DNA of 59,556 bases from an uncultured virus (IMG/VR IMGVR_UViG_2687453727_000003) (taxonomy: Duplodnaviria > Heunggongvirae > Uroviricota > Caudoviricetes): IMG/VR virus record IMGVR_UViG_2687453727_000003; one strand, 5' to 3'. Both the position numbers and the translations under genes were made by a program. Below the pieces are notes generated by a model, which worked only from the letters and a program-made list of their open reading frames with translations, did no database searches and was not told the origin of the DNA. This document shows, piece after piece, positions 3,393 through 21,088 of the stretch (positions within the stretch are counted from its first letter, which is position 1; each line of letters starts with the position of its first letter).

Positions 3393-3619
3393 ATAAAGTA
3401 CAACCCCTTTTAAGTATATATACATATACGGACCAAGAATACCCAACCACTATTATTATATTGGAAATTCTAAGAAAAAGAACAAAGTATATTAATTTTA
3501 TATAGCGAAATCTTACATTTTAGTTATTAATTAATATTTCTCATAGCAAATAAAATTTTAGTAATAAAATAGGATGAAATTTGATAAACTATTAGGATGG
3601 TAAAAGGAGAAATATAGAA

Positions 3620-3823: not shown

Positions 3824-4044
3824 TAGTTTTATCATCATTAAAAGGGTAATATATATGATAAAAAATTTATTATATGGAACAAAAGACAGCAAACTATTAA
3901 TTAATTTACTGTCTTTTGGCAACCTGCCAAGCTATAAAAGATTAGCAATTATAGTATTAGTAAATTACCAATATTTATACTATGGATTATTTGGGATTTA
4001 TGTAATATAATATCTCATAATAACATCAAGGTGGTGATTTTATT

Positions 4045-4194
4045 ATGAAAGATGTAACTATAGATACAATCAAAGATACAATAAGAGATCTTCCAGAAGG
4101 GGAACAAGAAGTAATATTATACTTAACAGAAATATTTAAAGGTGAAGAAGAGACTATTAATGAGTATATTAAGAATGAATTAATAGATAGATAA
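4045..4194 (+). CDS. Small acidic protein, 49 aa (not in ORF track)
   Basis: MKDVTIDTIKDTIRDLPEGEQEVILYLTEIFKGEEETINEYIKNELIDR; AAGGTGG RBS; frame-preserving paralogue at 56952-57113. Confidence 0.75.
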   Translation: MKDVTIDTIKDTIRDLPEGEQEVILYLTEIFKGEEETINEYIKNELIDR

Positions 4195-5155: not shown

Positions 5156-5569
5156 ATGAAAAAAATACTTAATATTTTATTATGCAGCTTATTACTATTT
5201 ACTATAGTAGGTTGTGGGAGCTCAGCAAAGAAATATACAGCTGAAGAATATGGAAATAAGCTAAAAGATGCTGGAGTTACTATTGAGAATATGGAAGTCA
5301 CAACTACCGAAAATGATAAAAATCAGTTGTTGGGTAGACCAAATCAATATACATCTAAAGTAACTTTTACCAATGGTAGTATAGAGGTATTTGCTAATAA
5401 GGAAGACGCCACTAATAGAAAAGAATACATTGATAATATTGGTAAGAAAATGCCTTTAGTAGCTGAATATAACTACGCAAATGATACAGGAGCATTATTA
5501 AGACTTGATAAAAAATTAAATCCAGATGAGGCTAAAAAATATGAAGATGCATTTATGAAAATTAAATAA
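5156..5569 (+). CDS. Lipoprotein
   Basis: Lipobox IVGC; GGGGGA RBS supports a start at 5156. Confidence 0.8.
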   Translation: MKKILNILLCSLLLFTIVGCGSSAKKYTAEEYGNKLKDAGVTIENMEVTTTENDKNQLLGRPNQYTSKVTFTNGSIEVFANKEDATNRKEYIDNIGKKMPLVAEYNYANDTGALLRLDKKLNPDEAKKYEDAFMKIK

Positions 5570-5634
5570 TATTCTATATGCTAGGATTAATTTCCTAGCT
5601 TTATTTTTATGTATAAAAATATTTTAAAATAATT

Positions 5635-5709
5635 AAAAAAGCGGCAGCCATAGCTGCCACCAGTCCATTTTGCATAATTAGTATAACTCAAATTTATTAA
5701 TAAGGTCAA
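5635..5709 (-). ncRNA. Candidate ultra-short (~40 nt) sigmaA RNA with its promoter
   Basis: TTGACC-N18-TATACT, then GCAAAATGGACT, a GC hairpin and T6; paralogue at 57333-57406. Confidence 0.5.
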
Positions 5710-5759
5710 GAAGAGATATGTAGTTGTTTTATTAATATTACTTATATTAAAGGAGTGAA

Positions 5760-6023
5760 ATGTTTATGTCTAATTTTAGTATTAATGATAATCCATTTGG
5801 AATGATATTAATTATCTTTCCACTACTTACATTTATAATATCTCTAATTTTACAACTTTTAATTAAGAAAAAAGTAATTATTTTAAGTATTATTTTTATA
5901 GGGTATTTAATTGCTACATTTACTTTATTTAATTCAACTTTCCTAATATGGTGTTTTGTTTATACGGGTATATCATTAATCGGAACATTTAGTGCAGATT
6001 TAATTCTTAAACATAAGAGATAG
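5760..6023 (+). CDS. Small membrane protein (DUF2651/YbeF-like)
   Basis: Three hydrophobic segments; AAGGAG RBS. Confidence 0.7.
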   Translation: MFMSNFSINDNPFGMILIIFPLLTFIISLILQLLIKKKVIILSIIFIGYLIATFTLFNSTFLIWCFVYTGISLIGTFSADLILKHKR

Positions 6024-6199
6024 CTTACTTTATAATTTCTTTATAAATAGTAGATATATTACAATCGGTAATACTTATATTTATTAATTCTCATTAAACA
6101 CCATAATTTACTTGATATTATCAATCTCTATATTAAAGGAATTTAGAAGAAAATGTAGAAATTAAAGTATTGAAAGTAAAATTTAAGGGGGATGTTTTA

Positions 6200-6637
6200 A
6201 TGAAGAACTTTAAGAGATTGATAGCTAGTTTTGTTACATTAATAACAATATTAGCAGCAACACCGTTAGCAGCACATGCAGAATGGAAAAATAATTCTAA
6301 CGGATGGTGGTATACAGAAGGAAACTCATGGGCTACTGGATGGAGATACATAGATGGGAACTGGTATTATTTCTATTCTAATGGTTACATGGCTAAAGAT
6401 TGTTATATTGGAGATTATTATTTACGTGGAGATGGAGCGTGGACAACTCCTCCTTCAAAGAGTAGTAGTGGAAGTACGGCAAGCAATACTAATAATGATC
6501 AAAGTCAAACAGTGTATGTATCAAAGAATGGTATATATCATTCAAGTCCAACTGCACATGGTATGAAATATTATACTACTATGTCTTTAGCTGATGCTCA
6601 AAAGGCAGGGTATAGAGCTTGTGAAAAATGTTATTAA
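6200..6637 (+). CDS. Secreted cell-wall/choline-binding repeat protein with C-terminal Cys motif
   Basis: Signal peptide, GWWY...ATGWRYIDGNWYYF repeats, C-terminal AQKAGYRACEKC; SigH-like AAAGGAATTT...GTAGAAAT at 6135-6162. Confidence 0.85.
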   Translation: MKNFKRLIASFVTLITILAATPLAAHAEWKNNSNGWWYTEGNSWATGWRYIDGNWYYFYSNGYMAKDCYIGDYYLRGDGAWTTPPSKSSSGSTASNTNNDQSQTVYVSKNGIYHSSPTAHGMKYYTTMSLADAQKAGYRACEKCY

Positions 6638-6799
6638 TATAATAAAGGATAATATATAAAAAAATAGAGGTAGTACTAAATGTTTTTTTAGTACTATCCT
6701 CTATTTTTATTAGATGGAATAATTATGATTTCTTCAATAAATAATTATTGACACAATATAGAAAGAATATACAATAATAGTAGACAAAGGGGGATTAAA

Positions 6800-7759
6800 A
6801 TGACAAAAACTAAAAAAGTTATTAGCTTATTACTAACTTTATTATTTTCATTGTTTCTAATATCATGTGGGAAAAGTTCTCAAGTTAATAATGTTAATAA
6901 TACTAATAGTACAACAGCAGCTACTACAGAAACAAAAATAGAAACTCAAAAAACTTTAGAAGATTTAAAGATACATTATATAGATGTTGGACAAGGCGAT
7001 AGTGAATTAATTCAAATAGGAGATAAAAATATATTAATCGACGCAGGAACTAGTGATAAAAAGGCTTTAGATTATCTTAAATCAATTGGAATCACTACAA
7101 TAGATTATGCAATTGCAACTCATCCACATGAAGATCATATAGGTAGCATGGATGATGTTATCAATAATTTAAAAGTTGGAACTTTTTATGCACCTAAAGC
7201 AACAACAACAACTAAGACATTTGAGAATATGGTAGATGCTTTAAAAAACAAAAACTTGAAAATGAATGTACCAAAAGTAGGAGATCAAATTACGGTAGGA
7301 GACGCAACATTAACATTTTTAGCTCCTAATAGTGCTAAGTATGAAGATTTAAATAATTATTCTATTGTCTGCAAATTAAAATACGGTAATAATTCATTTA
7401 TATTTATGGGAGATGCGGAAGATGTAAGTGAGGGGGAGATACTACAAAAACAATTAGATATACAGGCTGATGTTCTAAAGGTTGGGCATCACGGAAGTCA
7501 TTCGTATACAACTCAAGCATTTTTAGATAAAGTAAACCCTAAATATGCAGTTATAAGTTGTGAAAAAGGTAATGATTATGGACACCCACACGAAGAAACT
7601 TTAGATAAACTAAATGCTAAAAATATTAATGTATTTAGAACAGATTTAGAGGGAACAGTAATAGCAACAAGTGATGGAACAAATATAACATTCAATGTTA
7701 AGCCAGTTGATAAGGCTAATGACATAGCTCCTAAAAAAACTAATAAAAAAGATAATTAA
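6800..7759 (+). CDS. ComEC/Rec2-type metallo-beta-lactamase-fold lipoprotein
   Basis: Lipobox LISC; DVGQGD, THPHEDHIG, KVGHHGS, YGHPH; paralogue of 58615-59556. Confidence 0.9.
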   Translation: MTKTKKVISLLLTLLFSLFLISCGKSSQVNNVNNTNSTTAATTETKIETQKTLEDLKIHYIDVGQGDSELIQIGDKNILIDAGTSDKKALDYLKSIGITTIDYAIATHPHEDHIGSMDDVINNLKVGTFYAPKATTTTKTFENMVDALKNKNLKMNVPKVGDQITVGDATLTFLAPNSAKYEDLNNYSIVCKLKYGNNSFIFMGDAEDVSEGEILQKQLDIQADVLKVGHHGSHSYTTQAFLDKVNPKYAVISCEKGNDYGHPHEETLDKLNAKNINVFRTDLEGTVIATSDGTNITFNVKPVDKANDIAPKKTNKKDN

Positions 7760-8012
7760 ATTTATAAATCAGTAGTCATTATGTCTGCTGATTTTTTATA
7801 TCCATATATTAATATTCTATAAAATAAATACAAATATAATTATGGGAAAATCATTAAGTTTCTATCATTTCATTTCGATAATTTGCATTATGTAATAATA
7901 TATTTTCTGGATAAAAACATATGAATTTAAAGAAAATAAATGATTATATGGAAAAAGTAAGAGGAAAATTTTCTTTACAAGATAACGAAGGTTAAATATA
8001 ATATATTTATGA

Positions 8013-8024
8013 GAACGTATGTTT
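8013..8024. promoter_or_regulatory. LexA (SOS) box-like site
   Basis: GAACGTATGTTT matches Firmicute GAAC-N4-GTTY, just downstream of a TATAAT. Confidence 0.5.
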
Positions 8025-8139
8025 GCATAAGACGTGGATTTTATTAAAGGAATCGAGAAAATATTGAACTTAAGTATGGTAGAAGGATGTAAGTGGATAC
8101 TATTTAAAATATGGTAAAGTTTATTTTTCTAATAATGTT

Positions 8140-8343
8140 GTGATAAAAGGAATGATAGCTATGGTAATAAAAGATAAAGAATTAGATATAAATTTAGTAA
8201 GTGCTGTGGAGAAATATTTAAAACTAAATTACAGTGATCTATATAATAAGAATAATTTAGGAATAGTATTTGAAGAAGCTAAGGAAGATGATGAACTTAA
8301 GTTAAAAATATTTAATTCAATAAGAAGATTTATAATGAATTAA
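8140..8343 (+). CDS. Hypothetical protein
   Basis: ORF; AAAGGA RBS suggests a start at 8161. Confidence 0.6.
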   Translation: MIKGMIAMVIKDKELDINLVSAVEKYLKLNYSDLYNKNNLGIVFEEAKEDDELKLKIFNSIRRFIMN

Positions 8344-8531
8344 CGTAAAAAGATATTTAATAACAAATTATCATTAGAAATTATATATTATGTTAAAATC
8401 AAATTGAAGATTTAGAGTTTTCTTAGAAATCACCCAATAACGTAATGTGATATTTTATATCAGTATTCGTTATTGGGATAAGTATATAGAAATTTTTATA
8501 GTAAATAAATTTATAATTCCTGGTATAGGAG

Positions 8532-8759
8532 ATGACACATATGATAAGAATTTGTTTATCTAGAGTATTAGGGGAAAAAAGATGGACTCAAGCTTATTTG
8601 GCTAAAAAAACTGAAATAAGGCCTAATACTATTTCGGAACTTTATCATGAATTAAATAATAGGGTGAATTTAGATCATATTGATAAAATATGTGAAGTGG
8701 TAGGATGTGATCTTACAGATATATTAAAATACGAACCTAATAAAAAGAAAACCGATTAA
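8532..8759 (+). CDS. Cro/C1-type HTH regulator
   Basis: WTQAYLAKKTEIRPNTISELY...IDKICEVVGCDLTDIL; upstream inverted repeat CCCAATAACG/CGTTATTGGG at 8433-8477. Confidence 0.85.
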   Translation: MTHMIRICLSRVLGEKRWTQAYLAKKTEIRPNTISELYHELNNRVNLDHIDKICEVVGCDLTDILKYEPNKKKTD

Positions 8760-8787
8760 TTCGTATTGCGAAAGTATTGGTTAATTA

Positions 8788-9874
8788 ACGTGAGTTCGAT
8801 GGAAAAATTTAAGGGATAAAAAATCCCATCAAAATGTTTTATTATATAAGTGCGACCAAATAAATAAAACAAAGGATGGGATTTTATGCAAAACTTATTA
8901 GTGGAAATATTTTATGATGTAGACAATTTTTGTATTGGATTTGAAAATTACTGTAAAAGTCATTTCCTAACGGAAAATAGCGACCGCAAATTTGCAATGA
9001 TTAAAAGTAAAACTTTATCATTAAGCGAAGTTATGACAATAACTATCTACTTTCATTTGTCAAATTACAGAACTTTTAAATCATACTATATTGAGCATGT
9101 GTCTACTGTTCTCAAACCGTATTTTCCTAAGCTTGTGAGCTACAATAGGTTTGTTGAATTAATGCAACAATCATTAGTTGCACTACTATTATACATGATG
9201 AAATTTAGAACTGGCAAGTGCACAGGAATTTCTTTTATCGATTCTACAACTTTGAATGTATGCCATAATAGAAGAATACACTCTCATAAGGTTTTTAAAG
9301 GAATTGCAGAACGTGGTAAAAGTTCAACGGGCTGGTTTTATGGTTTTAAGCTTCATCTTGTTGTTAACGATAAAGGGGATATTCTCTCTTTTTATCTAAC
9401 TCCGGGAAATGTAGATGATAGAGAAATTAAGACTATAGAAATATTAGCAAAAGATTTATTTGGAAAACTTTTTGGTGACAAAGGTTATTTATCTAAAAAG
9501 ATCTCCGATATTTTGTATTCCAAAGGCATTCAGCTTATAACAAAGATAAAGAAAAACATGAAAAATAAATTAATGTTAATGGAGGATAAAATTCTTCTTA
9601 GGAAAAGAGCTATCATTGAAACAATAAATGACCAACTAAAAAATATATGTCAGATAGAGCATAATCGACATAGAAGTTTTACTAATTTTGCGGTTAATAT
9701 AGTTTCAGGATTGATTTCATATAGTTTTCTTCCTAAGAAACCTTCTCTTAAGTTGGACAAATATCTAACTATGGAATAATTGGAATATCGAACCACAAGA
9801 TTACAAGGATACTTTTTTGCTTTTTTTCATAACCATATTTACCCATAAAATATTCTAGCTTTTCGAACTCACGT
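8788..9874 (+). mobile_element. IS982-family insertion sequence
   Basis: Terminal IR ACGTGAGTTCGA / TCGAACTCACGT; 6-bp TSD TAATTA at 8782-8787 and 9875-9880. Confidence 0.92.
8886..9779 (+). CDS. IS982-family transposase
   Basis: FIDST, GWFYGFKLHL, FGDKGY, RAIIETINDQLK. Confidence 0.95.
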   Translation: MQNLLVEIFYDVDNFCIGFENYCKSHFLTENSDRKFAMIKSKTLSLSEVMTITIYFHLSNYRTFKSYYIEHVSTVLKPYFPKLVSYNRFVELMQQSLVALLLYMMKFRTGKCTGISFIDSTTLNVCHNRRIHSHKVFKGIAERGKSSTGWFYGFKLHLVVNDKGDILSFYLTPGNVDDREIKTIEILAKDLFGKLFGDKGYLSKKISDILYSKGIQLITKIKKNMKNKLMLMEDKILLRKRAIIETINDQLKNICQIEHNRHRSFTNFAVNIVSGLISYSFLPKKPSLKLDKYLTME

Positions 9875-10101
9875 TAATTAGTAAATCTCTTGTATTTAGA
9901 TAATACGAGAGATTTTTTAGTTTGAATTTATAACGTTAGATTTGTATTTTGAAATTCGTAAAATTTGTACAACACGAACATTAATTCTAATATGCATCAT
10001 ATGAAGATTGAATAATGAGGTCCATAAAATAGTAGTTAGATACAAAATATGGTATAATATCCTAATATAGCAGAGGTAATAGGATGGAAGGAGTATAAAA
10101 T

Positions 10102-10779
10102 ATGAATGAACTATATTTAATGCAATTAGATTATTTATTAAGGCTCTTTATTGCTGCAATATGTGGGATGGCTATTGGATATGAAAGAAAGAATCGAATG
10201 AAAGAGGCTGGAATTAGAACACATTTTATTGTAGCTATAGGGGCAGCACTTATAATGATTATATCGAAATATGGATTTCAAGATCAGATAGGATGGCTCA
10301 ATATGTCTCTTGATCCATCACGTATAGCAGCTCAGGTTGTCACAGGAGTTGGATTCCTTGGTGCAGGGATAATTTTTATGCAAAAACAAACAATAGTAGG
10401 ATTAACAACGGCAGCAGGAGTTTGGGCTACAGCTGCTATAGGTTTAGCTATAGGTTCTGGACTTTATTTTGTTGGGATAGCAGCTACTGCTATTACTATA
10501 TTGGGACAAATACTTTTGCATGGTAAAATTAAATTTTTATCATCTCCAAGGACAGAGTCATTAGCGTTGCAGATTGTGGATGAGCCAGATGCTATTAAAT
10601 TTCTTCAAGAAATATTTGAAGATAATGAGATAACTATAATTAATTTAAAGAGCAAAAGAGATGAAAAATCCTTATTAATTGATTTGAAAATAGTGATAAG
10701 AATATATGAATCATTTAATATAATTAAATTCTTGAATATATTGCAAAGTAAAGATTTTGTAAAGTCTTTAGAATTTTAA
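10102..10779 (+). CDS. MgtC/SapB family membrane protein
   Basis: IGYER...AGIRTH, DPSRIAAQVVTGVGFLGAG, GLTTAAGVW. Confidence 0.92.
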   Translation: MNELYLMQLDYLLRLFIAAICGMAIGYERKNRMKEAGIRTHFIVAIGAALIMIISKYGFQDQIGWLNMSLDPSRIAAQVVTGVGFLGAGIIFMQKQTIVGLTTAAGVWATAAIGLAIGSGLYFVGIAATAITILGQILLHGKIKFLSSPRTESLALQIVDEPDAIKFLQEIFEDNEITIINLKSKRDEKSLLIDLKIVIRIYESFNIIKFLNILQSKDFVKSLEF

Positions 10780-11126
10780 GGGAAAATAAATTGTGCTAAT
10801 AAAGAATAAATTTAATGAAAATAATGGATATAAAAATACCGTAGTATTCAAAAATGAATTTGCGGTATTTTTTATAGTTTAAATATTATTTAACACTATG
10901 AACGTATGCAAATTTGTGTTCAGTGTATATTTAAAAATTTCTAAAATTACATATTTAGAAAAACTTTATATTTTTATACGCTTAAAATTAATAATAAAAT
11001 GTTATAGTATTTCTTATTTTGTTACTCTTCCACATAATATTAAGTGTTCATTAATGAATTATTAAACACTTAGACAATAAAGAGCATAATATAATCATAA
11101 GTTAATTTATGAACGGGGGAATATTA

Positions 11127-11528
11127 ATGGAGAATTCGACCATTGAAGAATTACAAGAACGAATTAGTTTATATAAAGATAAAATAGAGTTACTAACCAA
11201 AGATAATGTTAGACTATATAACGAAATAGAAGAAATAAAAGTTGATACAAATGTTATTAGCTCCAAGGAATATGATATTCTATTAGATAATATGGAATTA
11301 TTAAAATCGGAACTTGAAAAGTATAAGAATTTATATTTTCGCGAAAAACAGAAAAGTAAAGTTCATATAGTAAAGAAGTCAAAAATTGTTGGAAGAAAAC
11401 CTGTATCGGATGAATTAAGAAATAAAGTATTAGATTTAAAAAAGCAAGGATCAAATATAAGGAGCATTGCTAAGGAATTGAATATTGCGCTTGGTATTGT
11501 TCACAAAATAATTAATGAACAAAAATGA
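11127..11528 (+). CDS. Coiled-coil protein with C-terminal resolvase-like HTH
   Basis: GRKP...GSNIRSIAKELNIALGIVHKII; GGGGGA RBS. Confidence 0.75.
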   Translation: MENSTIEELQERISLYKDKIELLTKDNVRLYNEIEEIKVDTNVISSKEYDILLDNMELLKSELEKYKNLYFREKQKSKVHIVKKSKIVGRKPVSDELRNKVLDLKKQGSNIRSIAKELNIALGIVHKIINEQK

Positions 11529-11688
11529 TAAGTGAAATATCTATACAATGCTAAAATAGAATGTATGAAAAGGAGCATATCAGGATAATTAAAAATTATC
11601 TTAATATACTCCCTTTTGTTTTATTTTTCTAAATTAAATTACCATAAAAGTCTAAATATAAATTTTCCTACATTATAATATAAGAAAT

Positions 11689-11973
11689 TTAATCAAGATA
11701 ATTTTTAGGAAGATTGAATGCTTTAATTATTTTCTTCTTTGATGGCAAACTTGGATTAAAAATTCCTCTTTCCCATTGACCAATAGTGACTACTTTTCTA
11801 TTGATCTTTTTACCGAATTCAATCTGGGAAAGTCCGCTAAGATATCTAAGCTTACGAATTCTATTTGTTATATTATCTTCAAGGTCATTAAAAATAGCAT
11901 TAGCTAAAAATTCCCTATAATTAACAGTAAATAGCTCGAATACACTTTTAAATGTTGCACTTTTATACAGGTT
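11689..11973 (-). pseudogene. XRE-family HTH ORF lacking a start codon, 5'-truncated at the putative att junction
   Basis: 94 open codons including NRIRKLRYLSGLSQIEFGKKINRKVVTIGQWERGIFNPS; no in-frame ATG/GTG/TTG upstream of the HTH, hence absent from the ORF track. Confidence 0.8.
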
Positions 11974-12064
11974 GCAACCGGTTCTGGCAAAACTACTACA
12001 ATCTATACAATATTGAAAGAAATAGATTCCAAAGCTTTAAATATAACGACGTTGGAAGATCCAG
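11973..12064 (+). pseudogene. Internal fragment of a host GspE/PilB/ComGA-family secretion/pilus ATPase gene
   Basis: From 11974 reads ATGSGKTTTIYTILKEIDSKALNITTLEDP (Walker A plus Asp box); similarity stops at both ends. Confidence 0.85.
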
Positions 12065-12084
12065 AAAGTTTTAAATTGCACTAA

Positions 12085-13530
12085 CTAATAAATCAAGAGA
12101 TTATCACCATCCCATACTAATTTATCGAAAATTATGTTTATCAAATTTTGTTTATCCTCTAAATTTATTTTATTAAAATGTTTTACAAATTCATTTTTAG
12201 CTAGTTCTTTGTTTTTAAGCATTTCATCCTTTTTGCTTTTGTTATTTAGAACTATTTGATATTTGGTGTATTGCACATTTAGTTCTTCGATTTCGAGTGA
12301 GAGCTGTTCTGCTTTGTCTAACATAGATTTTGCAACAGCAGTTGAAGCAAGAGCAGACTTTTCCAAAAAACCATCATACATCTTTTTCTTTTTCTTAAGT
12401 TGTTTTTCTATATTTTCAGCAATATTAAATTCAATATTTTCATCATTTTTATTTAAGATTTTTTCAAGATTTCCGTTTTTTAAAGTAGAAAAAATTTTAT
12501 CTTCTATTTCATCAACTCTTATTCCTGAAAAACAATTTTTCTTGCATCTAAAATACATAGGCCTAGTTCCGTCTTTTCTTATGCTTCCATAGTTTATGCT
12601 CATTATTTTATTACATTGTTTACATATGATTTTATGTGCTAGCCAACTTTTAGTAGATATTCTAGGTGGTACATGTTCCAATGCCCTTAGCCTTTCTCTA
12701 ACTTTTATCCAAAGAGTAGAGTTTATTATTCCTTTATTTTGTGTTATTACCGCCAAATTAACCATTTTATCTTTTATAAACTTGTTGTATTTATAAGTCA
12801 TATAGCCATTACCATTAGGTTCTCCAATTACTTTATATCCAATAGTGGACAGGTATTTGTTGGAAATTTCATCTGATATTAAATAAATAGGATTTCTCAA
12901 AACAGTTCCTAAATTTCTAGGTGTTATTCCAGTTTCCTTAGAAATCGTCCACATAGAGTTACCAATAGAAAATTGGTTAAAAATATATAGGATTTCTTCT
13001 TTTTTCTCGATTTCCAAATACTTACCTCCAATTCCTTCAGAAGCAACACAACCATAAGGAGGAGTTCCTCCGCTCCAGCGACCTTGTTTAGCTAAACTAT
13101 ACATACCATCAATAGCACGTCTTTTAATATTTTCTCTTTCCATTTCAGCTAAAGAAGCTAATAACGTCATCATCATTTTTCCAGCAGGAGTTCTGGGATC
13201 ATAATTATCCTGAACACAAACCAAATCGACTCCAATTTTTTTTAACTCCTCAAATGTATTAAGGAAATCTAGAGTATTTCTAGCCATCCTATCAAGCTTA
13301 TAACAAGCAACAACATCAAATTCATTATTATGAGCATTAGCTATCATTTGTTTAAATGCCGGTCTGTTTATGCTTCCGCCGCTAAACCCATCATCAGTAT
13401 ATACAACAAACTTGCAGTTTTCTTTATTGAAATAATTTTTTATTATTTCAAGTTGCGCATCTATTGAAATACTATTTTCATCCCCTTTTACAGACTTTCT
13501 TAAATATGCTGCGATTTTCATAAAATTCAC
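12085..13530 (-). CDS. Large serine integrase
   Basis: AAYLRKS catalytic Ser, DDGFSG, RP, LDRMARN, recombinase domain, CxxC...YFRC zinc ribbon, coiled coil; stop 20 bp from the junction. Confidence 0.95.
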   Translation of the reverse strand: MNFMKIAAYLRKSVKGDENSISIDAQLEIIKNYFNKENCKFVVYTDDGFSGGSINRPAFKQMIANAHNNEFDVVACYKLDRMARNTLDFLNTFEELKKIGVDLVCVQDNYDPRTPAGKMMMTLLASLAEMERENIKRRAIDGMYSLAKQGRWSGGTPPYGCVASEGIGGKYLEIEKKEEILYIFNQFSIGNSMWTISKETGITPRNLGTVLRNPIYLISDEISNKYLSTIGYKVIGEPNGNGYMTYKYNKFIKDKMVNLAVITQNKGIINSTLWIKVRERLRALEHVPPRISTKSWLAHKIICKQCNKIMSINYGSIRKDGTRPMYFRCKKNCFSGIRVDEIEDKIFSTLKNGNLEKILNKNDENIEFNIAENIEKQLKKKKKMYDGFLEKSALASTAVAKSMLDKAEQLSLEIEELNVQYTKYQIVLNNKSKKDEMLKNKELAKNEFVKHFNKINLEDKQNLINIIFDKLVWDGDNLLIY

Positions 13531-13589
13531 CCTTTCGAATGTATGTTCTTTTTTGCGTATAGAAAATTCAGTCTAACCTAAACTTGTGA

Positions 13590-13892
13590 TTAGATTACAT
13601 TAGTTGCAAATTGGATTAAGCGTTGCAAAGCTATTGGGTTATTTTCAAATTCAATAGCTTCGCTTTCACATTCAGGAGTTTCTAAGTCGCTATTAAAATG
13701 TCTTAAGTGAATTAATTCATGTAGTAATTTCTTTATATTATATTCATAAGTCAAATTCGAATTTAGAATAATAACTTTTTGCCCGTTGTTGTCAATTGTT
13801 GCCCCTGTGAAAGTACATTCTAAATTAGTAAAAACAACTCTCAATTCTCCACAATCAATCATCTTTTTTGCATTTTTCATTATGTTAACCAT
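13590..13892 (-). CDS. ImmA/IrrE-like metallopeptidase (anti-repressor)
   Basis: LLHELIH...ESEA; lies between repressor and integrase. Confidence 0.75.
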   Translation of the reverse strand: MVNIMKNAKKMIDCGELRVVFTNLECTFTGATIDNNGQKVIILNSNLTYEYNIKKLLHELIHLRHFNSDLETPECESEAIEFENNPIALQRLIQFATNVI

Positions 13893-13906: not shown

Positions 13907-14266
13907 TTAGCTTTCTGTTTCTTCCTCAAACATCTCAATCATTTTTATTATTTTATTTTTATCTTTTTCAGTTAATTTTTCAAATTTGGAGAAGAATATC
14001 TTATTTTTTTCTATGTATTCATCAAGCTTATTAGTTTTAGATATGTCTTCTGAATCAGAAATATCACTTTCAAAAAATTCATTTACAGAAACATTAAAAG
14101 CTTTTGCAAGAAGTTCAAGAGAATCAGTTTCTATTTTTCTTTTTCCGTTCTCCATTTTACTTATAGTAGACTGAGGGATTCCTGTTAATTCGGATACATC
14201 ATAGGTTGTCAAATTTCTATTTAATCTTAAAAGTTTTAGCTTCTCATGAGGTTTCATTAAAATCAC
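13907..14266 (-). CDS. CI/ImmR-like XRE repressor
   Basis: HTH LTTYDVSELTGIPQSTISKMENGKR; divergent from cro. Confidence 0.9.
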   Translation of the reverse strand: MILMKPHEKLKLLRLNRNLTTYDVSELTGIPQSTISKMENGKRKIETDSLELLAKAFNVSVNEFFESDISDSEDISKTNKLDEYIEKNKIFFSKFEKLTEKDKNKIIKMIEMFEEETES

Positions 14267-14787: not shown

Positions 14788-14983
14788 AATTGTGATTTCC
14801 AGATCACCCGAAAAGTCTTACTAAACTACGCAACATAATTTTCAAATAGTTAAGCAAGAAATTTAATTAATATAACAAATCTTATTTATCATATCTCACA
14901 ACTCGAAGCAATTACATTCAGTAATTTTCAGCTAAGAGTAAATATTAAATTTAAGTATAGAAGGAAGTGAGGAAATTATAAAA

Positions 14984-16063
14984 ATGAATGATTTAACTAT
15001 TGACAATGAGTTTAAAGACTTACTACCTCCATTATCAGAGGAACAAAAGGAAGAGCTCGAAAAAGACATAATTAAAAATGGTTGCATAAATTCACTAACT
15101 GTATGGAAGAACATTTTGATAGATGGCCATCACAGGCATGAGATATGCACAAGGAATAATATTCAATTCGATATAGTTGAAATGGAATTTAAGGACAGGC
15201 TCGAGGCTATGGAATGGATTTGGATGAATCAAAAAAATAGAAGAAATTTAACTAAGTATGAGTTAGCACAAATAGCACTGAAGTTTAAGCCAGTAATAGA
15301 AGCTAAAGCTAAAGAAAATCAATTATCAACACTTAAACAAAATACCGTTTTGACGAAATCATCAAAACGGGAAGATGAAAGAAAAGAGTCTGTTGAAGAA
15401 AACACCAACCTAGTTGATTCTGATGGAAATCAACCGATAGATGGACAAATTGATTTTACAGAAATAAATGAAGAAAAAGTGAAAAAGGTAGAGCCTATAA
15501 ACACTAGAAAGGAGATAGCAAAAATAGCAGGAGTTTCAGAGGATACAATCCATAAGGTTGAAGTTATCGAAGAAAAAGCTCCAGAAGAAATTAAGCAGCA
15601 AGTGAAGAAGGGAGACATAACAATTAATAGTGCTTATGTTCTTACTAAATCAGCTATAGAGGCAGACAAAAAGAACGCTGAATATGAAAAAGAGTACCAG
15701 GAGCAGTTGGAAAAAGAACAGCAAGAGAATGAAGAAAAGAAGAAGTTAGAAGAAATTCAAAAGAACCTTCCAGAAAATGCAGTTGTATTAGATAAATTCA
15801 GGAAACCAAAAGAAGCTCATATTTTTGGAATTGAAGACTTCAATAACCTAACAATGGATCAATTTAATGATTGTATAAAGCATTCTAAAAAATATCGTGA
15901 TGCAATTAGTAAAGTTGCATTATTAAGTACAGATATAGAGGCATTAATGGCATGGGGAGCAATAGCCAATACTCCAGATATTGTAGAAATAGAGCTACAA
16001 GATATTAATTCAGCTATCCAAAATTTAATTAAGATACAGAACTATTTTAAAGGAGGCAAGTAA
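14984..16063 (+). CDS. ParB/Srx N-terminal-domain protein with HTH
   Basis: LPPLSEEQKEELEKDI...LIDGHHR...NQKNRRNLT; TRKEIAKIAGVSEDTI. Confidence 0.8.
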   Translation: MNDLTIDNEFKDLLPPLSEEQKEELEKDIIKNGCINSLTVWKNILIDGHHRHEICTRNNIQFDIVEMEFKDRLEAMEWIWMNQKNRRNLTKYELAQIALKFKPVIEAKAKENQLSTLKQNTVLTKSSKREDERKESVEENTNLVDSDGNQPIDGQIDFTEINEEKVKKVEPINTRKEIAKIAGVSEDTIHKVEVIEEKAPEEIKQQVKKGDITINSAYVLTKSAIEADKKNAEYEKEYQEQLEKEQQENEEKKKLEEIQKNLPENAVVLDKFRKPKEAHIFGIEDFNNLTMDQFNDCIKHSKKYRDAISKVALLSTDIEALMAWGAIANTPDIVEIELQDINSAIQNLIKIQNYFKGGK

Positions 16064-16064
16064 T

Positions 16065-16466
16065 ATGAGTGAAGCATTAGAAAAAAAGGCCAAAGAAAAG
16101 ATACTAGAACAGATGGACGAGCTTGGCGGAGAAATAACTACAGATGACGTTGTAGAGCTATTAAGACCACACTATATATTTAATATCCGTAAGCTTAGGG
16201 AACAAGCGTTAAGAAGGACAGCCAATAACTTAATGGCAACATACCGTGATAATAAAGGTGTTAGAACTTGTTTTAGCTGTAAGGATGATAGCGGAAATTC
16301 AAAATATTTTAATATCGAAACTACAACTGATTTAAAAGCATTAAAAAACATTGAAATCCAGTTAAATAAAAAATATAAAGGTCTTAATATTTCTAAGAAA
16401 AAAGTTCAAAGAAGAAGAGACGAGCTTTCAGGACAAGTATCATTTAAAGAAGTTGAAAATTCATAG
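16065..16466 (+). CDS. Hypothetical phage protein
   Basis: ORF with AGGAGG RBS, coupled to the ParB-like gene. Confidence 0.75.
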   Translation: MSEALEKKAKEKILEQMDELGGEITTDDVVELLRPHYIFNIRKLREQALRRTANNLMATYRDNKGVRTCFSCKDDSGNSKYFNIETTTDLKALKNIEIQLNKKYKGLNISKKKVQRRRDELSGQVSFKEVENS

Positions 16467-16485
16467 ATTGAGGAGGAATTATAAG

Positions 16486-16926
16486 ATGCAAAAATACAGA
16501 TTACACGTTGATGAGACAATAAACAGATTAAACTTCATTGATATTGAAACAGAGCTAAATGAAAAAGAAGTTGATGCATTACTTACTAAAATTGAAAAAG
16601 AGGATATTACAAGTGCATTAGATTTAAAGCGAAGATTAGAGACACAAGGTGTGCAAGTAAAATCAATAAGAGTAGATAATGGACCTTATTACAGAAGAGC
16701 TGAAACATTGGAAATTGAGGAGCTAGAAGATGTCAAAAGGAAAGGAATTATGGTTAAGTTCAAAGCTTGTGATTTAAGCAAATCAATAATTGAACAAGCT
16801 ATCGATGAACTAAGGGAAAGGATGCATATTAGTATTTCAGTAAATGGGCCACAGTCTGACACAACTATTAAAATAAGTCAGCAACTGGATGAATTGATTG
16901 TTGTAGAAATGAGGTCTAGGATATGA
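16486..16926 (+). CDS. Phage protein with C-terminal Spo0E-like domain
   Basis: IDELRERMH...TIKISQQLDELIV (SQELD-like); GAGGAGG RBS; internal RBS plus ATG at 16750. Confidence 0.7.
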   Translation: MQKYRLHVDETINRLNFIDIETELNEKEVDALLTKIEKEDITSALDLKRRLETQGVQVKSIRVDNGPYYRRAETLEIEELEDVKRKGIMVKFKACDLSKSIIEQAIDELRERMHISISVNGPQSDTTIKISQQLDELIVVEMRSRI

Positions 16927-17111
16927 AAAAATGTGAAGATTGTGATGAATGCACATATATAGGCGAAGGTGATTATGTCTGCATTAAGGATGAACCTAAA
17001 ATTGTTATTACTGAATTTATTATTGCAACAGATGATTATGGACAATGTGGAAATAAAAAAGCTACCAAGAACCCCGACCAAAGCGTTCAAAGTAGCTACA
17101 ATAAGTTTTGA
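16923..17111 (+). CDS. Cys-rich small phage protein
   Basis: CEDCDECTYIGEGDYVC. Confidence 0.7.
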   Translation: MKKCEDCDECTYIGEGDYVCIKDEPKIVITEFIIATDDYGQCGNKKATKNPDQSVQSSYNKF

Positions 17112-17154
17112 AAATATTTCAAGAACATTATAACACATGAGAGGAGGAATTCAA

Positions 17155-17376
17155 GTGTTAGTTAGATGTCAGTGGAAAACTTGCATTAATTACAAGGATG
17201 GAATGTGTAAAGCTCCTGCAATAGAACTTAAGAGCTTTGACTATGAAGAAGATAATGAGGAACTTGAGGGATTAAAATGCGACAGTTATAAATATGATTC
17301 CTTTTGGATGTGTAAAGAAGGTAGAGAAGTTGACTCTAAAGATTTTAATAAGGAGGCTGATGTAGTTGGCAAATAA
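17155..17376 (+). CDS. Cys-rich small protein (DUF1540-like)
   Basis: VRCQWKTCINYKDGMCKA; GGAGG RBS before GTG at 17155. Confidence 0.65.
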   Translation: MLVRCQWKTCINYKDGMCKAPAIELKSFDYEEDNEELEGLKCDSYKYDSFWMCKEGREVDSKDFNKEADVVGK

Positions 17377-18199
17377 TCAGATACAAGCATATGTGATAGG
17401 TGCATTAAATGAGAAATTAACTAGTATGTTAGAAATAGAAAAGAAGGCACTCCCAGAAGGTTTTAATGGACTTAGGTTTAAGCAAAATGTTCTAAGGGTT
17501 TTAAATACTGTTAACTTAGAAAATATGAAAGGGCAGGAGTTTAACCTTGCTAAATGTATAATGCGTGGAGCATATCTGGACTTAGATTTTGCTAACAATG
17601 AATGCTATGTAATTACCTACAAGGGCAAACCGGAATTTATGACAGATTACAAAGGCGAAACCAAGCTTGTTAGGAAGTTTAGTTCTAAAAAAATTAAAGA
17701 TATTTATGCAAAGCTAGTTCGTTATGGTGATGAGTTTGAAGAAGGTGTTGACCATGGTAAGCCATATGTAAACTTTAAGCCAAAGCCATTTAATAATGAT
17801 GATATTACGGGAGTTTTTGCAGTTGTTTATTACGAAGATGGTGCGATGGAATACGAAACAATGTCTAAGGAAGAGGTTGAGTATATTCGAGACAATTGGA
17901 GCAAAAAGGATAAGTATGGGAAGTTTTCTGCTGCATGGGTAAAGAGCTTTGGTGAAATGGCAAAAAAGACTGTTTTGAGAAGACTTTGCAAACATATAAA
18001 TATTGATTTTGATAACATTAAGCAGCTTGAAGCATGGGAAGAAGGTTCGGATATGGAATTTGAAAATGAAAAACCCAAAGAAGCTGCTACAGAAAAAAGT
18101 GATCTTGAAAAAGAATTAGAGGAGAATGAGGACATTGTTAAACAAACTGATTTTGTAGATACTCCATTTGAGGAGGTTAATGAATATGGTGATAACTAA
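17366..18199 (+). CDS. recT: RecT-family single-strand annealing protein
   Basis: ECYVI...DYKGE, LVRYGDEF, W...FGEMAKKTVLRRLCK. Confidence 0.9.
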   Translation: MANNQIQAYVIGALNEKLTSMLEIEKKALPEGFNGLRFKQNVLRVLNTVNLENMKGQEFNLAKCIMRGAYLDLDFANNECYVITYKGKPEFMTDYKGETKLVRKFSSKKIKDIYAKLVRYGDEFEEGVDHGKPYVNFKPKPFNNDDITGVFAVVYYEDGAMEYETMSKEEVEYIRDNWSKKDKYGKFSAAWVKSFGEMAKKTVLRRLCKHINIDFDNIKQLEAWEEGSDMEFENEKPKEAATEKSDLEKELEENEDIVKQTDFVDTPFEEVNEYGDN

Positions 18200-18953
18200 A
18201 GAGAATTATTACAGCATAGAAGCCGATTTAAGCACTATGTCAGTATCACAGTACAAACTATTTAAGCAATGTGAATTAATGGCTATGGCAAAGCTAAAAG
18301 GGGAATATAAACAGAGTGAAAGTGATGCATTCCTATTAGGCAAATATATTCATTCATGGAGTGAAGGAACTTTAGATGATTTTAAAAAAGAAAATCCAAG
18401 CTTATATTCAACTCAAGGCAAAACTAAAGGGGAATTAAAATCAACTTTTAAAGTAGCTGAAACAATGGTTAAGTCCTTAGCAGATGATTCGAATTGTATG
18501 AAATTTTTGCAAGGCAAAAAAGAAGTAATCATTCAAGGCGAATTATTTGGTATTAAGTGGCGTGGAATGGTTGATGTATTGAACTTAGAAAAAGGATTCT
18601 TTACAGATTTAAAGACAACCCAAGGAATCCATAAAAAATATTGTGGATTGACCTTTATTGAGCATTACGGGTATATAGAACAAATGGCAATTTATAGAGA
18701 GTTAATTAAACAACAATTTGGCAAAGACTTAATTCCATACATTGTTGCAATAGAAAAGAATGATAATCCGCTTAAAGCAATAATTAAAGTAGATGAAAGG
18801 TACACCACACCAAAGCTTGAGGAAATTGAGTACAACATCGGGCGCATTATAAAAGTTAAAAGTGGAGAAGAAAATCCAATTGCGTGTGGTTTATGTGATT
18901 ATTGCAGAGCTAATAATAAGGTAACTCAAATTTTAACAATAGAAGAATTGTAG
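18180..18953 (+). CDS. PD-(D/E)XK exonuclease (RecT partner)
   Basis: MSVSQYK, WRGMVDVL...DLKTT, YIEQMAIY, CGLCDYCR. Confidence 0.85.
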   Translation: MNMVITKENYYSIEADLSTMSVSQYKLFKQCELMAMAKLKGEYKQSESDAFLLGKYIHSWSEGTLDDFKKENPSLYSTQGKTKGELKSTFKVAETMVKSLADDSNCMKFLQGKKEVIIQGELFGIKWRGMVDVLNLEKGFFTDLKTTQGIHKKYCGLTFIEHYGYIEQMAIYRELIKQQFGKDLIPYIVAIEKNDNPLKAIIKVDERYTTPKLEEIEYNIGRIIKVKSGEENPIACGLCDYCRANNKVTQILTIEEL

Positions 18954-18961
18954 GTGATTGA

Positions 18962-19756
18962 ATGGCTAAAGTGTACTATTGGCTTAAATTAAATAAGGAT
19001 TTTTTCAAAGGTAAAGAAATTAAGAAACTAAGGAAAATAGCTGGTGGAGATACTTACACAATAATATATTTGAAGCTTCAATTACTTAGTCTTAAGGATG
19101 AAGGAAAGCTGTATTTTGATGGAATAGAAGAAACATTTGCGGAAGAATTAGCCTTAGAACTAGATGAAGATTCAGACAATGTAAGTTTTGTATTAATGTA
19201 TCTAAAAAAGTGCGGATTACTGAAAGAAATTTCAGATTCAGAGTTACTTTTGAATGAGGTTCCAACGTCAATAGGAAAAGAGACAGATAAGGCTCAACTA
19301 ATGAGAAATAAACGCTTTAAGAATAAAAAATTAATAGAAAGTGGTAACAATGTTACCGAAGAGTTACCACCTGTTACTTTTTGTTACACAGAGATAGAGA
19401 TAGAGAAAGAGATAGAGAAAGATATAGATATAAATAAAAAAACTAAAAAAAGAAAAATAACTTCGATTGATTCTTTAATTAACAACTATACCAGTAATGA
19501 AGAATTGAGAAATACTTTAGTTGATTTTATAAAAATGAGAAAGTCAATTAAAAAACCTATGACGGATAGAGCTTTACAGATAATGCTTAAGAAGCTAAAG
19601 GGCTTATCGGAAAATGAAGAAATACAAATTAAAATTTTAGAAAATAGCATAGAGCATTGTTGGCAAGGCATATTCGAACTTAAAGAAGACCATAAGAACC
19701 AGACAACTATATCTAACAATAAAAAACAATATGATGCATTTCAATTTGATGAATAG
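18962..19756 (+). CDS. Phage replication initiator (replisome organiser N-terminal domain)
   Basis: YYWLKLNKDFF...IKKLRKIAGGDTYTIIYLKL. Confidence 0.9.
   Translation: MAKVYYWLKLNKDFFKGKEIKKLRKIAGGDTYTIIYLKLQLLSLKDEGKLYFDGIEETFAEELALELDEDSDNVSFVLMYLKKCGLLKEISDSELLLNEVPTSIGKETDKAQLMRNKRFKNKKLIESGNNVTEELPPVTFCYTEIEIEKEIEKDIDINKKTKKRKITSIDSLINNYTSNEELRNTLVDFIKMRKSIKKPMTDRALQIMLKKLKGLSENEEIQIKILENSIEHCWQGIFELKEDHKNQTTISNNKKQYDAFQFDE
19343..19430. repeat. Putative phage origin: phased iterons inside the initiator gene
   Basis: GGTAAC-AAT-GTTACC palindrome; GTTAC at 19352, 19363, 19373 and 19383 (10-11 bp spacing); followed by GAGATA repeats and an A-rich tract. Confidence 0.65.
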
Positions 19757-19774
19757 CTAAATAGAGGTGATTAG

Positions 19775-21088
19775 ATGGATACAGAACAGTTACAAATACT
19801 ACCGCAAAATATAAGAGCTGAACAAGAACTCTTATCAGGTATATTTTATAACCCTAAGATAATAGTACAAGCAGTAAATGAGTTGAAAACAAATGATTTT
19901 TATAGATCAAGCCATCAATTAATATTTAACGCAATGTGTGCATTATTTGCAGACGGGAAAGAAATAGGAATAACGCCCATTATAGAGGTTTTAGGAAAAG
20001 ACAGTCTAGTATACGTCGGAGGGGTTTCATACCTCACAGAACTAATGACAGGTGGGTTTAAATTAAATGTAAAACAATACGTGGACATTATAAAAGATAA
20101 GTCCTTCAGAAGAAAGGCGATAAAATCATTAAATTCAGCTATGAATGCATTGTATGACGATAAAATTAAACCAGATGTTTCAATTAGTAAAATGTCAAAT
20201 GAATTAAGCCAAACAGAAGACAAAAGCCAAATACTAAATGATACGCAGTTACTTAATGCCACAATATCAAAGATAGAAGAAAGATATGCTAATGGTGGAG
20301 ATATTCCAGGCATGAAAACAGGATTTCATGACTTTGATAGAGCAACAAATGGAATGAATAAAGGAGACTTATTTGTAATCGGTGCTCGTCCATCAATGGG
20401 GAAAACAGTTACTGCTTTAAACATAGCTGACGGACTAGCGAAAAACGGTAATAATGTGCTTGTATTTGAAATGGAAATGGTAGAAACAGCATTGGGAAAT
20501 AGGAGATTGGCTTTCAATTCAAATGTTGAAGCACAGAAATTAAAAACAGGAAAACTTAATGCAGAAGAGTTTGAAAGAATACTTATGGCAGCTAACAAAT
20601 TATCTAAGAGAAATGGAATATTTACAGATTGCAGCAGCTACCAAAACACATTAACTATAAAAGCTAAGACTAAAGCAGTAAAACAAACTCATGGTTTAGA
20701 TGTGGTAATTGTAGATCACTTAACGTTAATGGACATACCTAACACTGGAAATAGATCGTCAGATATTGGTGAAGTTACAAGACAATTAAAGATGATGGCT
20801 AAAGAATTAGAAGTAACAGTAATCGTATTATCACAATTATCTAGAAAAGTTGAAGAGAGGGCAGATAAGAGACCAACATTGGCGGATTTAAGAGAATCTG
20901 GGAATATTGAACAAGATGCAGACTTGATAATGTTCTTGTATCGTGATGAATATTACAACAAAGAAACAGAAGACAGAAATATTATTGAATGGATAATAGC
21001 GAAGCAAAGAGATGGAGCAGTTGGAACACTTAAATTCTATTACTTGGATAAGCTCCAAAAGATCGCAAATATAGATTGTTTAAGGTAA
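19775..21088 (+). CDS. dnaB: Replicative DNA helicase
   Basis: GARPSMGKT, VIVDHL, LSQLSR, DLRESGNIEQDAD, IAKQRDG. Confidence 0.95.
   Translation: MDTEQLQILPQNIRAEQELLSGIFYNPKIIVQAVNELKTNDFYRSSHQLIFNAMCALFADGKEIGITPIIEVLGKDSLVYVGGVSYLTELMTGGFKLNVKQYVDIIKDKSFRRKAIKSLNSAMNALYDDKIKPDVSISKMSNELSQTEDKSQILNDTQLLNATISKIEERYANGGDIPGMKTGFHDFDRATNGMNKGDLFVIGARPSMGKTVTALNIADGLAKNGNNVLVFEMEMVETALGNRRLAFNSNVEAQKLKTGKLNAEEFERILMAANKLSKRNGIFTDCSSYQNTLTIKAKTKAVKQTHGLDVVIVDHLTLMDIPNTGNRSSDIGEVTRQLKMMAKELEVTVIVLSQLSRKVEERADKRPTLADLRESGNIEQDADLIMFLYRDEYYNKETEDRNIIEWIIAKQRDGAVGTLKFYYLDKLQKIANIDCLR

Follow-up and report, generated by a model that had tools for sequence, protein, structure and literature searches.

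An XRE helix-turn-helix frame at a clostridial element junction, read as the probable attR-side half of a frame that crosses attP

We analysed a 59,556-nt stretch of DNA from an uncultured virus (IMG/VR record IMGVR_UViG_2687453727_000003). This whole stretch is called the window, and all coordinates refer to it. Two integrated elements, a left element (E1) and a right prophage (E2), lie 90 bp apart in a host pilB-type ATPase gene. At the E1 junction, a minus-strand frame at 11692-11973 encodes an XRE helix-turn-helix (HTH) domain but begins without a canonical start codon. We propose, with a probability of about 0.65, that this frame, hereafter the tail, represents the attR-side half of a longer reading frame, one that spans the phage attachment site (attP) in clostridial elements with large serine integrases. 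The proposal is based mainly on Clostridium perfringens phage CP51, in which the homologous segment is the C-terminal end of the integrase itself, and on integrated relatives of CP51, in which the two parts are found apart. Labels beginning with P, L, G and X denote protein records, fetched loci, virus or provirus records and sequencing runs, respectively. The frames on which the argument turns are as follows.

11692-11973, minus strand: tail frame, 94 codons, stop at 11689-11691; an N-terminal linker of about 17 residues, then the XRE HTH
12085-13530, minus strand: E2 integrase, a probable large serine recombinase, 481 aa, with its own TAG stop before the predicted P' arm; Resolvase match with E 1.5e-38
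12037-12081, minus strand: short frame MQFKTFWIFQRRYI followed by a stop; an E2-derived leader (to about 12065) running into antisense pilB

An XRE tail shared with fused serine integrases

The minus-strand translation from 12090 to 11686 reads Y-stop-LVQFKTFWIFQRRYI-stop-SFGIYFFQYCIDCSSFARTGCNLYKSATFKSV...NLPKNYLD-stop. The integrase stop (TAG, 12085-12087), a GTG at 12079-12081, the short frame and a stop-free stretch of 115 codons (12036-11692, stop at 11689-11691) all lie in one minus-strand frame. The initial annotation had described a 94-codon XRE-HTH frame that reads inward from the left junction without a start codon, and a GTG, 3 nt after the integrase stop, that yields only a short peptide in the same frame. 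Both descriptions agree with the translation, and the first also with the list of open reading frames (ORFs) and with the Pfam match given below. No minus-strand ORF of at least 40 aa with an ATG, GTG or TTG start is listed across the 115-codon frame, in which the first such codon is number 96. There are 84 stop-to-stop frames of at least 90 codons in the window, and the HTH frame is one of three that have no start in their first 80 codons. Openness alone is insignificant: mononucleotide shuffles gave a mean of 1.55 stop-free frames of at least 115 codons. Pfam HTH_3 (PF01381) matched residues 60-114 of the 115-codon frame with E 6.6e-8 and 32.9 bits (cut-off 23). The match covers profile positions 1-55 of 55, which places the tail in the XRE/HTH_3 family. 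We regard the HTH frame as real coding sequence because of this match, its homologues and the selection described in the next paragraph, and not because of its openness. Conserved coding begins at the junction (11973/11970), and the 22 codons upstream are host pilB read in antisense.

Homologues of the tail include P0001 (97% identity), P0002 (61%) and the tails in L041 (90%) and L042 (57% over the 115-codon query). When the window tail was compared with the 64%-identical copy in L042 over 91 codons, synonymous divergence (dS) was about 1.1 and non-synonymous divergence (dN) was 0.24, which gives a dN/dS ratio of 0.22. The ratio against L041 was 0.35, and the copy in G002 differs from that in the window by three substitutions. 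These ratios indicate that the tail frame is under selection. The NCBI records in the 90% cluster of the tail protein have six lengths (56, 72, 95, 105, 112 and 131 aa), and the N-terminal extensions of some database records (MDFLQYC..., MYFFQYC...) are antisense pilB. A scan of genome contigs with the tail alignment returned 12 loci, all of them distant HTH proteins with 28-65% identity over parts. Megablast of 11600-13600 against GenBank phages gave no match.

When the tail was searched against GenBank phages by tblastn, the match was the 3' end of the "integrase" gene of CP51 (vB_CpeS-CP51, NC_021325, phiCP51_0029). This integrase has 655 aa and runs in one frame into an HTH tail. By BLASTP, the window tail aligned with its residues 596-653 (the last 58 aa) with 38% identity and E 5e-10, and P0091, a 102-aa relative of the tail, aligned with residues of about 560-654 (97% covered, 40% identity, E 9e-11). 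Together with the family alignment, these matches establish homology between the tail and the C-terminal extension of a fused integrase.

An uninterrupted integrase-tail frame was found in two of 35 CP51-integrase-related loci from IMG/VR, namely CP51 (655 aa) and G009 (667 aa). Eleven of the 35 stop matching at positions 570-572 of the integrase, nine of them at the end of the fetched locus. L078 was tried as a third fused form and was rejected; its integrase has 553 aa and ends at the host junction. The initial annotation had suggested a survey of serine-integrase elements for the same layout, and we searched for the tail in five records with a cut integrase. In three of them (G005, G007 and G013), a tail lies at or near the opposite end on the same strand (within the last 260 nt in G005), and the whole split layout is visible. 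There was no tail in G006 and only a weak match in G008. The window tail likewise reads inward from what would be the far end of E1: it lies at the junction of E1 with pilB, as it also does in L041, L042 and G002. At the DNA level, attP of CP51 equals attL plus attR of G005 around ATGTCCAG(T/C)AT; that is, ...CACACAGCATGTCCAGCATGAATAAAAAG... in CP51 corresponds to attL (...CACACAGCATGTCCAGTATCTAA) and attR (ATGTCCAGTATGAATAAAAAA...) in G005. As judged from these alignments, integration in the CP51 family severs the HTH tail from the integrase, and circularisation restores it. The initial annotation was thus right in kind when it proposed a gene that is split by integration and completed across attP, since the tail is severed at a junction, fused in CP51 and G009 and split in G005, G007 and G013. 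The pairing of the two pieces that it saw in the window is a different matter and is treated with the host gene below.

Two further relatives of the element family, L078 (5077-5898) and L104 (2497-2982), lie in one and the same host gene at different positions. By its motifs, this gene is taken to be a TrmFO/Gid-like FAD enzyme.

Attachment-site arms read as codons

In CP51 and G009, a 16-nt arm (P'), a 20-nt spacer, the first codon of the tail and a 16-nt inverted arm (P) follow one another. P' matches the reverse complement of P at 15 of 16 positions in CP51 and at 16 of 16 in G009; at integrated junctions, where host DNA takes the place of the missing arm, 2-7 of 16 positions match. Because 16 + 20 nt make 36 nt, or 12 codons, the frame is kept across attP. 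In the fused forms, the arms are read as codons, K/M-L-S/Q-F-... and N-K-K/T-T/A-T. The corresponding arms predicted in the window are as follows.

11952-11967, minus strand: predicted P arm of E1, TATAAAAGTGCAACAT; codons Y-K-S-A-T-(F); position and outer motif TGCAACAT as in CP51 and G009
12069-12084, minus strand: predicted P' arm of E2, TTAGTGCAATTTAAAA; directly after the integrase stop, includes the GTG at 12079-12081

Each element thus has one predicted arm in the window at the expected distance, and the P' arm of E2 matches the reverse complement of the P arm of E1 at 10 of 16 positions. The spacer centres, between 11977 and 11978 for E1 and between 12058 and 12059 for E2, both fall within 10-bp shared stretches. 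The P' arm of E2 encodes L-V-Q-F(-K) where G009 has M-L-Q-F and CP51 has K-L-S-F, and its GTG stands at the position of ATG TTG or AAG TTG in the relatives (M-L-Q/H-F, K-L-S-F). The 16 + 20-nt geometry would keep this arm in frame with a tail. On the other side of the crossover, the conserved 'xKxATF' at the start of the tail is best read as the predicted integrase-binding arm. An AlphaFold model of the tail has five helices, with predicted local distance difference test (pLDDT) values of >90 over the HTH and <50 at residues 1-10; this disordered start agrees with an integrase-binding arm that is read as a linker.

We scanned IMG/VR for the arm motif ATGTTGCA-N36-TGCAACAT and obtained 30 loci. 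Only G009 among them has both integrase and tail, and the others are chance matches or other sequences. Inverted arms that match at 12-13 of 16 positions, with the same outer motif (ATGTTGCA...TGCAACAT), are present in the IMG/VR loci L115, L121, L125 and L129; in the first three, the upstream frame ends with ...LDLII and a stop. By tblastn, these four loci have no integrase like that of E2 or G009. These arms may serve a different group of recombinases as attachment sites.

The E2 integrase probably belongs to the same broad class as that of CP51. Its Resolvase match (PF00239) scored 132.6 bits, over the cut-off; Zn_ribbon_recom scored 19.7 bits, under the cut-off of 25.3, and there was no match to Recombinase (PF07508) at E <=0.01. 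The identity with the CP51 integrase (30% over 424 aa) and the length of 481 aa fit large serine recombinases. Close copies are present in G002 (96%) and G003 (95%). The protein ends with ...NLLIY and a stop, and its 45%-identical relative in G004 with ...IVIY and a stop. At attL, the sequence from the stop onward is TAG TTA GTG CAA TTT AAA ACT TT. The predicted P' arm follows the E2 stop directly, with the GTG as its second codon. Three database proteins resemble an attP form, at the protein level only. P0163 and P0091 both begin with MLHF, the presumed translation of the outer arm motif ATGTTGCA..., and the first codon of the tail stands 11 codons on. In P0044, MLHF is preceded by ELIYS, which resembles an integrase end without a stop. 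Such frames have the arrangement suggested in the initial annotation, in which the integrase side supplies the start and the opposite side the HTH body. A scan of IMG/VR with P0163 found no relative.

From these observations, we propose the following course of events. The unrecombined order, seen in CP51 and G009, is integrase, P' arm, spacer with the crossover, P arm and XRE HTH. In these two fused forms, the integrase carries the HTH as its own C-terminal tail, with the arms read as M/K-L-x-F ... x-K-x-A/T-T. In the stop-separated forms (E2, and at the protein level P0163 and P0091), the tail would be made from the start in the P' arm beside the integrase stop. On integration, as integrated relatives show, the integrase stays with the P' arm on the attL side and the tail comes to lie at attR. 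The tail in the window belongs to E1, whose insertion point is in the Walker A codons of pilB, and the attL of E2, 90 bp downstream, keeps the matching leader. The attL of E1 is expected to carry a P'-like arm of approximately ATGTTGCACTTTTATA, 10 nt from the crossover. The likeliest role of the tail would be that of an extra DNA-binding module that acts only on the circle, in integration or in the control of its own transcription.

A more far-reaching version, which we regard as tentative and on balance doubtful, is that the tail senses the circular state. In stop-separated forms such as E2, ribosomes would restart 3 nt after the integrase stop, at a start codon within the P' arm, and would read through the crossover into the XRE regulator on the circle only, and the product would set re-integration against replication. 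Recombination site, start codon and linker would then be one 52-nt sequence.

If the proposed split frame extends to E2, this prophage should have a tail at its attR, for which we see roughly an even chance. P0013 (a tail that begins with MYKSATF) and P0183 (the C-terminal part of PilB, called from MPNINQ) each come from a single contig of 4,860 nt. This is a hint that an element at the E2 site (LEDP/VE) carries a tail, although equal length is no proof of one contig.

Two insertions in a host pilB gene

The window was divided into host DNA and elements as follows (a slash within a peptide marks a point of insertion).

11975-12064, plus strand: 90 bp of the host pilB/gspE-type ATPase gene left between the insertions (…TGSGKTTTIYTILKEIDSKALNITTLEDP), from the T2SSE match and the alignment to L040
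11975-11984, plus strand: 10-bp stretch shared by both E1 ends, CAACCGGTTC; crossover region in the Walker A codons of pilB
12055-12064, plus strand: 10-bp crossover stretch of E2, GAAGATCCAG; pilB codons LEDP/VE; host homology stops at 12064
1514-11974: E1 right arm, with two insertion sequences (IS), a metallo-beta-lactamase (MBL)-fold lipoprotein gene, 67-aa and 75-aa HTH genes, MgtC, a 139-aa gene and the tail frame
12065-59556: E2 prophage, with integrase, immunity, structural and lysis genes and right arm; runs past the end of the window, so that attR lies outside

The plus strand at 11965-12078 matched Pfam T2SSE (E 3.3e-8); the match spans Walker A to LEDP, at profile positions 150-179. 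The intact host gene is represented by the nearest full-length protein, P0005, a member of the GspE/PulE family with 454 aa. Its sources give the name Clostridium beijerinckii, and it reads ...GLILISGPTGSGKTTTIYTILKEIDSKALNITTLEDPVEIVMPNINQ.... The DNA of this gene is found in L040, intact from the start up to a tyrosine-integrase prophage inserted farther downstream; in the alignment to L040, the window is host-like at 11975-12064 only. Among the window, G002, L041 and L040, all of the 3-7 differences in the 90-bp piece are silent when it is read as pilB and change the amino acid when it is read in antisense. Therefore, the piece is pilB and does not code for the HTH protein. The idea that it is part of attP was rejected because it evolves as pilB. 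A reading of the window as a circular phage-plasmid was also considered and dropped.

About ten bases are shared at the flanks of each element, CAACYGGTTC for E1 and GAAGATCCAG for E2. In the metagenome contigs L041 and L042, the tail is joined at Walker A to a pilB that runs unbroken through LEDPVEIV to its end and is followed by pilC and pilin genes. P0004 is the N-terminal part of PilB with an intact Walker A. It ends with ...LEDPVRFKVHLLIN, an attL-type junction at LEDP, and what follows LEDP is the counterpart of ...LEDPESFKLH-stop-LIN in the window. Because L041 and L042 lack the E2 junction and P0004 lacks the E1 junction, E1 and E2 are separate insertions into different targets 90 bp apart.

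These junctions decide against the literal form of the initial annotation, in which the GTG leader of E2 and the HTH body at 11692-11973 are two halves of one gene joined by excision. The two pieces do lie in one minus-strand frame, and the P' arm of E2 and the P arm of E1 are related, as their 10 of 16 matches as inverted repeats indicate. However, they belong to different elements with different crossover stretches (CAACCGGTTC and GAAGATCCAG) and flank 90 bp of host DNA that evolves as pilB; the E1 junction exists without that of E2 in L041 and L042, and the E2 junction without that of E1 in P0004. Excision of either element would not join the two pieces. The shared frame results from the length of pilB, 90 bp, that happens to separate them; we regard it as coincidence, and the pairing itself as contradicted by the junction comparisons and hardly credible.

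E1-type elements may have other targets. P0171, a record named C. beijerinckii, has a near-identical tail (CN/LYKSATF) on a different flank, ...CCFTRPCC. We read this flank as the antisense of the Walker A of another ATPase; if so, elements of the E1 type have inserted more than once.

The other side of the E1 insertion was sought in contigs of four sequencing runs (Logan), aligned to L040:1-2050. In three of the four (X1, X2 and X14), a contig with the N-terminal part of pilB and its upstream neighbours fits L040 as far as position 1751, beyond which it runs on into different DNA (7,897 nt in X1, 43 nt in X2, 2,903 nt in X14). X1 may be the run from which the window derives. Because of these continuations, we consider that the attL side of E1 is present in these genomes. 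Contigs with the 90-bp piece fit L040 1742-1831 (from 1742 in X1 and to 1831 in X14), and a third contig in X14, with the C-terminal part of pilB, fits from 1822. L040 1864-1932 is uncovered in X1 and X2, but such a hole proves nothing. Scans of IMG/VR with the C-terminal and N-terminal parts of pilB gave five loci in four records. All of them are tyrosine-integrase prophages at two further pilB sites, with neither an attL of E1 nor an attR of E2. When pilB was searched by tblastn against 113 loci, no piece of it was found beside a CP51-type integrase.

Taken by itself, the pilB/gspE-type gene (L040 1063-1992; window 11975-12064) is an insertion hot spot with at least four points. These are Walker A (E1 type), LEDP/VE (the E2 serine integrase), LRSILRQD/ (tyrosine integrases of 361-362 aa in L056 and L058) and DEETA/ (tyrosine integrases of 386-399 aa in L040 and L057).

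The E2 prophage has a GH25 lysin and a separate repressor-like gene at 13907-14266. The provirus G001 is 100% identical to the window at 40000-59556 and 97% identical at 14963-20000. In G001, a tyrosine integrase like that at the DEETA site of L040 replaces the serine integrase and the immunity genes. This looks like a swap of integrase modules between otherwise identical prophages.

Positions 1514-7750 of the E1 arm are colinear with 55726-59553, with 68-88% identity. Therefore, the last 10 kb of E1 are the counterpart of the E2 region after the lysin, and by this colinearity E1 and E2 are kin. The E1 arm abuts pilB in L041, L042 and G002 as well. In G002, the E1 arm (tail, 139-aa gene, MgtC and 75-aa HTH gene) follows the 96%-identical integrase, with immunity genes unlike those of the window.

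Several features of the right arms were noted in passing. An IS982-like DDE transposase gene (8886-9779) lies between the 75-aa HTH gene and MgtC and is absent from this place in G002 and L041, and an IS3-family transposase gene (2018-3352) interrupts the left part of the E1 arm. The 139-aa protein (11109-11528) has a coiled coil and a C-terminal HTH like that of resolvases or transposases, all below Pfam cut-offs; its gene is kept beside the tail in G002 and L041 and is absent in L042. Each right arm has one MBL-fold lipoprotein gene (6800-7759 and 58615-59556; 88% identical). Both proteins have a sub-threshold match to the anti-Pycsar protein Apyc1 (about 20 bits against a cut-off of 50), and Clostridium phage c-st carries a gene with 67% similarity to them. 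Distant blastn of the right arms against GenBank phages found only an MBL gene of c-st and one short match. Non-coding stretches of 80-380 nt with hairpin-like inverted repeats recur between the two arms (1514-5688 and 55726-57534, 68-84% identity), and no Rfam family was matched anywhere in the window.

The state of E1 bears on whether its tail still has a function. E1 could be a decayed and immobile relic, in which the tail is open through recent descent rather than through function. Phage structural genes are absent from the 12 kb of E1 in the window, which instead encode IS3-family and IS982-like transposases, MgtC, an MBL-fold lipoprotein and a sugar-binding protein, and only three substitutions separate the window tail from that in G002. 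Against this stand the dN/dS ratios of 0.22 over a dS of about 1.1 (L042) and 0.35 (L041), the near-identical tail beside a different flank in P0171 and the attL-side junction in three of the four runs. We therefore consider the relic explanation improbable. It concerns the present state of the window copy and is compatible with the proposed split frame for the family.

Start of the tail, significance and known systems

The strongest competitor of the split frame, apart from its own bolder version, is that the tail is a complete gene. It would then be a small XRE regulator at the edge of the element, translated in the lysogen from ATG, CTG or ATA whatever the state of excision. The codon in question is the following.

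11968-11970, minus strand: CTG codon, at the position of ATG in P0002, P0013, P0057, P0093, CP51 and G009 and of ATA in L042

The window, G002 and L041 share CTG at this first codon, and L042 has ATA. ORF callers give proteins of 90-93 aa that start at this position, the tail is under purifying selection, and the tail ORF of CP51-like prophages has ATG codons at attR; all this is what a gene in its own right would show, as are the ATG-bearing relatives considered below. However, two lineages lack a canonical start there, and in the family alignment, which includes the CP51 tail, the first residue varies among M, L and I as an internal hydrophobic position would. No Shine-Dalgarno-like purine run is present within the 14 nt 5' of the first tail codon in the window, L042 and L104. 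Moreover, the first codons are the predicted integrase-binding arm, and the same sequence lies inside the integrase in CP51 and G009. A complete gene is, for these reasons, an unlikely explanation. A promoter and terminator scan of the window was not above chance (five promoters found against 6.7 expected), and the RNA runs X3-X6 contain every sampled word of window 11500-12600 and are uninformative on strand, level and start. We conclude from sequence comparison that the tail of the E1 lineage has no start of its own and depends on upstream sequence on the circle, whereas a start of its own is possible in the ATG-bearing lineages. Because the first codon is CTG, a Shine-Dalgarno sequence is lacking and antisense pilB lies upstream, the E1 tail is most likely untranslated while integrated.

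Several points weigh against the split frame. The attL of E1 and the attR of E2 lie outside the window, so that in-frame completion of E1 and E2 across attP is inferred. The E2 integrase has its own stop, and no Shine-Dalgarno sequence precedes the GTG. In G004, which has the sole complete relative of the E2 integrase among the records analysed (45% identity), attP comes immediately after the stop and a tail is lacking. Fused or attP-form DNA was not found in any close relative, that is, one with >45% integrase identity. ATG is the first tail codon in P0002 and in four of seven fetched family representatives (P0013, P0057 and P0093, and internally P0044), which makes an own start possible there, and CP51-like prophages obtain an ATG from the duplicated core, so that the tail is not necessarily silent in the lysogen. 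Among the best 150 matches in a search of 1.84 billion representatives, those that cover the N-terminal part of the tail by their best-scoring stretch are all of 107 aa or less, and the five long matches fetched are multi-HTH proteins. Finally, E1 looks decayed, since its 12 kb lack phage structural genes and contain two IS elements, and this copy may never rejoin its other half.

If the proposal is correct, the small HTH "regulators" of inconsistent length that annotation pipelines call next to disrupted genes would each be one half of an integrase-linked frame, and such an ORF would locate, to the base, the attR of a serine-integrase element. Two natural forms of the integrase would then exist, long or tail-coupled on the circle and short in the lysogen, which bears on how serine integrases avoid mistimed re-integration or excision. 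The use of serine integrases in genome engineering would also be concerned, because attP arms would tolerate being codons. The 16-20-16 geometry would be a simple finder for both prophage ends, and the pilB gene would be a hot spot used by at least four different integrases.

The principle of an integrase truncated by integration is already in print. The SPbeta-like Bacillus phage vB_BsuS-Goe14 is reported to integrate into spoVK; its integrase thereby loses 131 aa, and an ORF of 97 aa arises that matches the part removed. The extension is stated to resemble no known structure (Kohm et al., bioRxiv 10.1101/2021.11.22.469490). The system proposed here is like that of Goe14 in that integration truncates the integrase and splits a host target gene. 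It differs in that the tail is an XRE HTH, stop-separated forms are present, the arms are read as codons, and the target is a pilB-type ATPase gene with two elements 90 bp apart. Among literature titles and abstracts, we found none that describes an integrase split for CP51, an XRE tail or arms read as codons.

CP51 shares with the window the tail family and, for the arms predicted here, the arm-spacer-arm geometry, with the linker MNKKTTL in place of LYKSATF, and its integrated relatives are split exactly at the first codons of the tail. Unlike the window, CP51 has a fused frame and a core that gives an ATG to the tail at attR; the window tail has CTG as its first codon and lies near an integrase that ends at a stop of its own.

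More distant parallels are known. The integrase gene itself contains attP in the IntP/IntX system of myxophage Mx8 and in archaeal viruses with SSV1-type integrases, and integration changes or splits the gene. These integrases are tyrosine recombinases, and we know of no HTH tail and no symmetric arms read as codons in them. In the immunity system of mycobacteriophage BPs and its relatives, in which BPs has a tyrosine integrase, the attachment site lies inside the repressor gene and the product depends on integration: the repressor of the lysogen loses a C-terminal degradation tag and becomes active. The window does not belong to this type, since its tail loses the N-terminal side, the neighbouring recombinase is a serine recombinase and a separate repressor-like gene is present at 13907-14266; the lysogen is expected to lose the tail product, whereas the BPs lysogen has an active repressor. 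A further parallel is provided by the clostridial elements Tn4451 and Tn4453, in which the promoter for the serine recombinase TnpX is formed by the joined ends and exists only on the circular intermediate. Tn4451 and Tn4453 assemble a promoter on the circle, whereas the E1/E2 family would assemble a reading frame.

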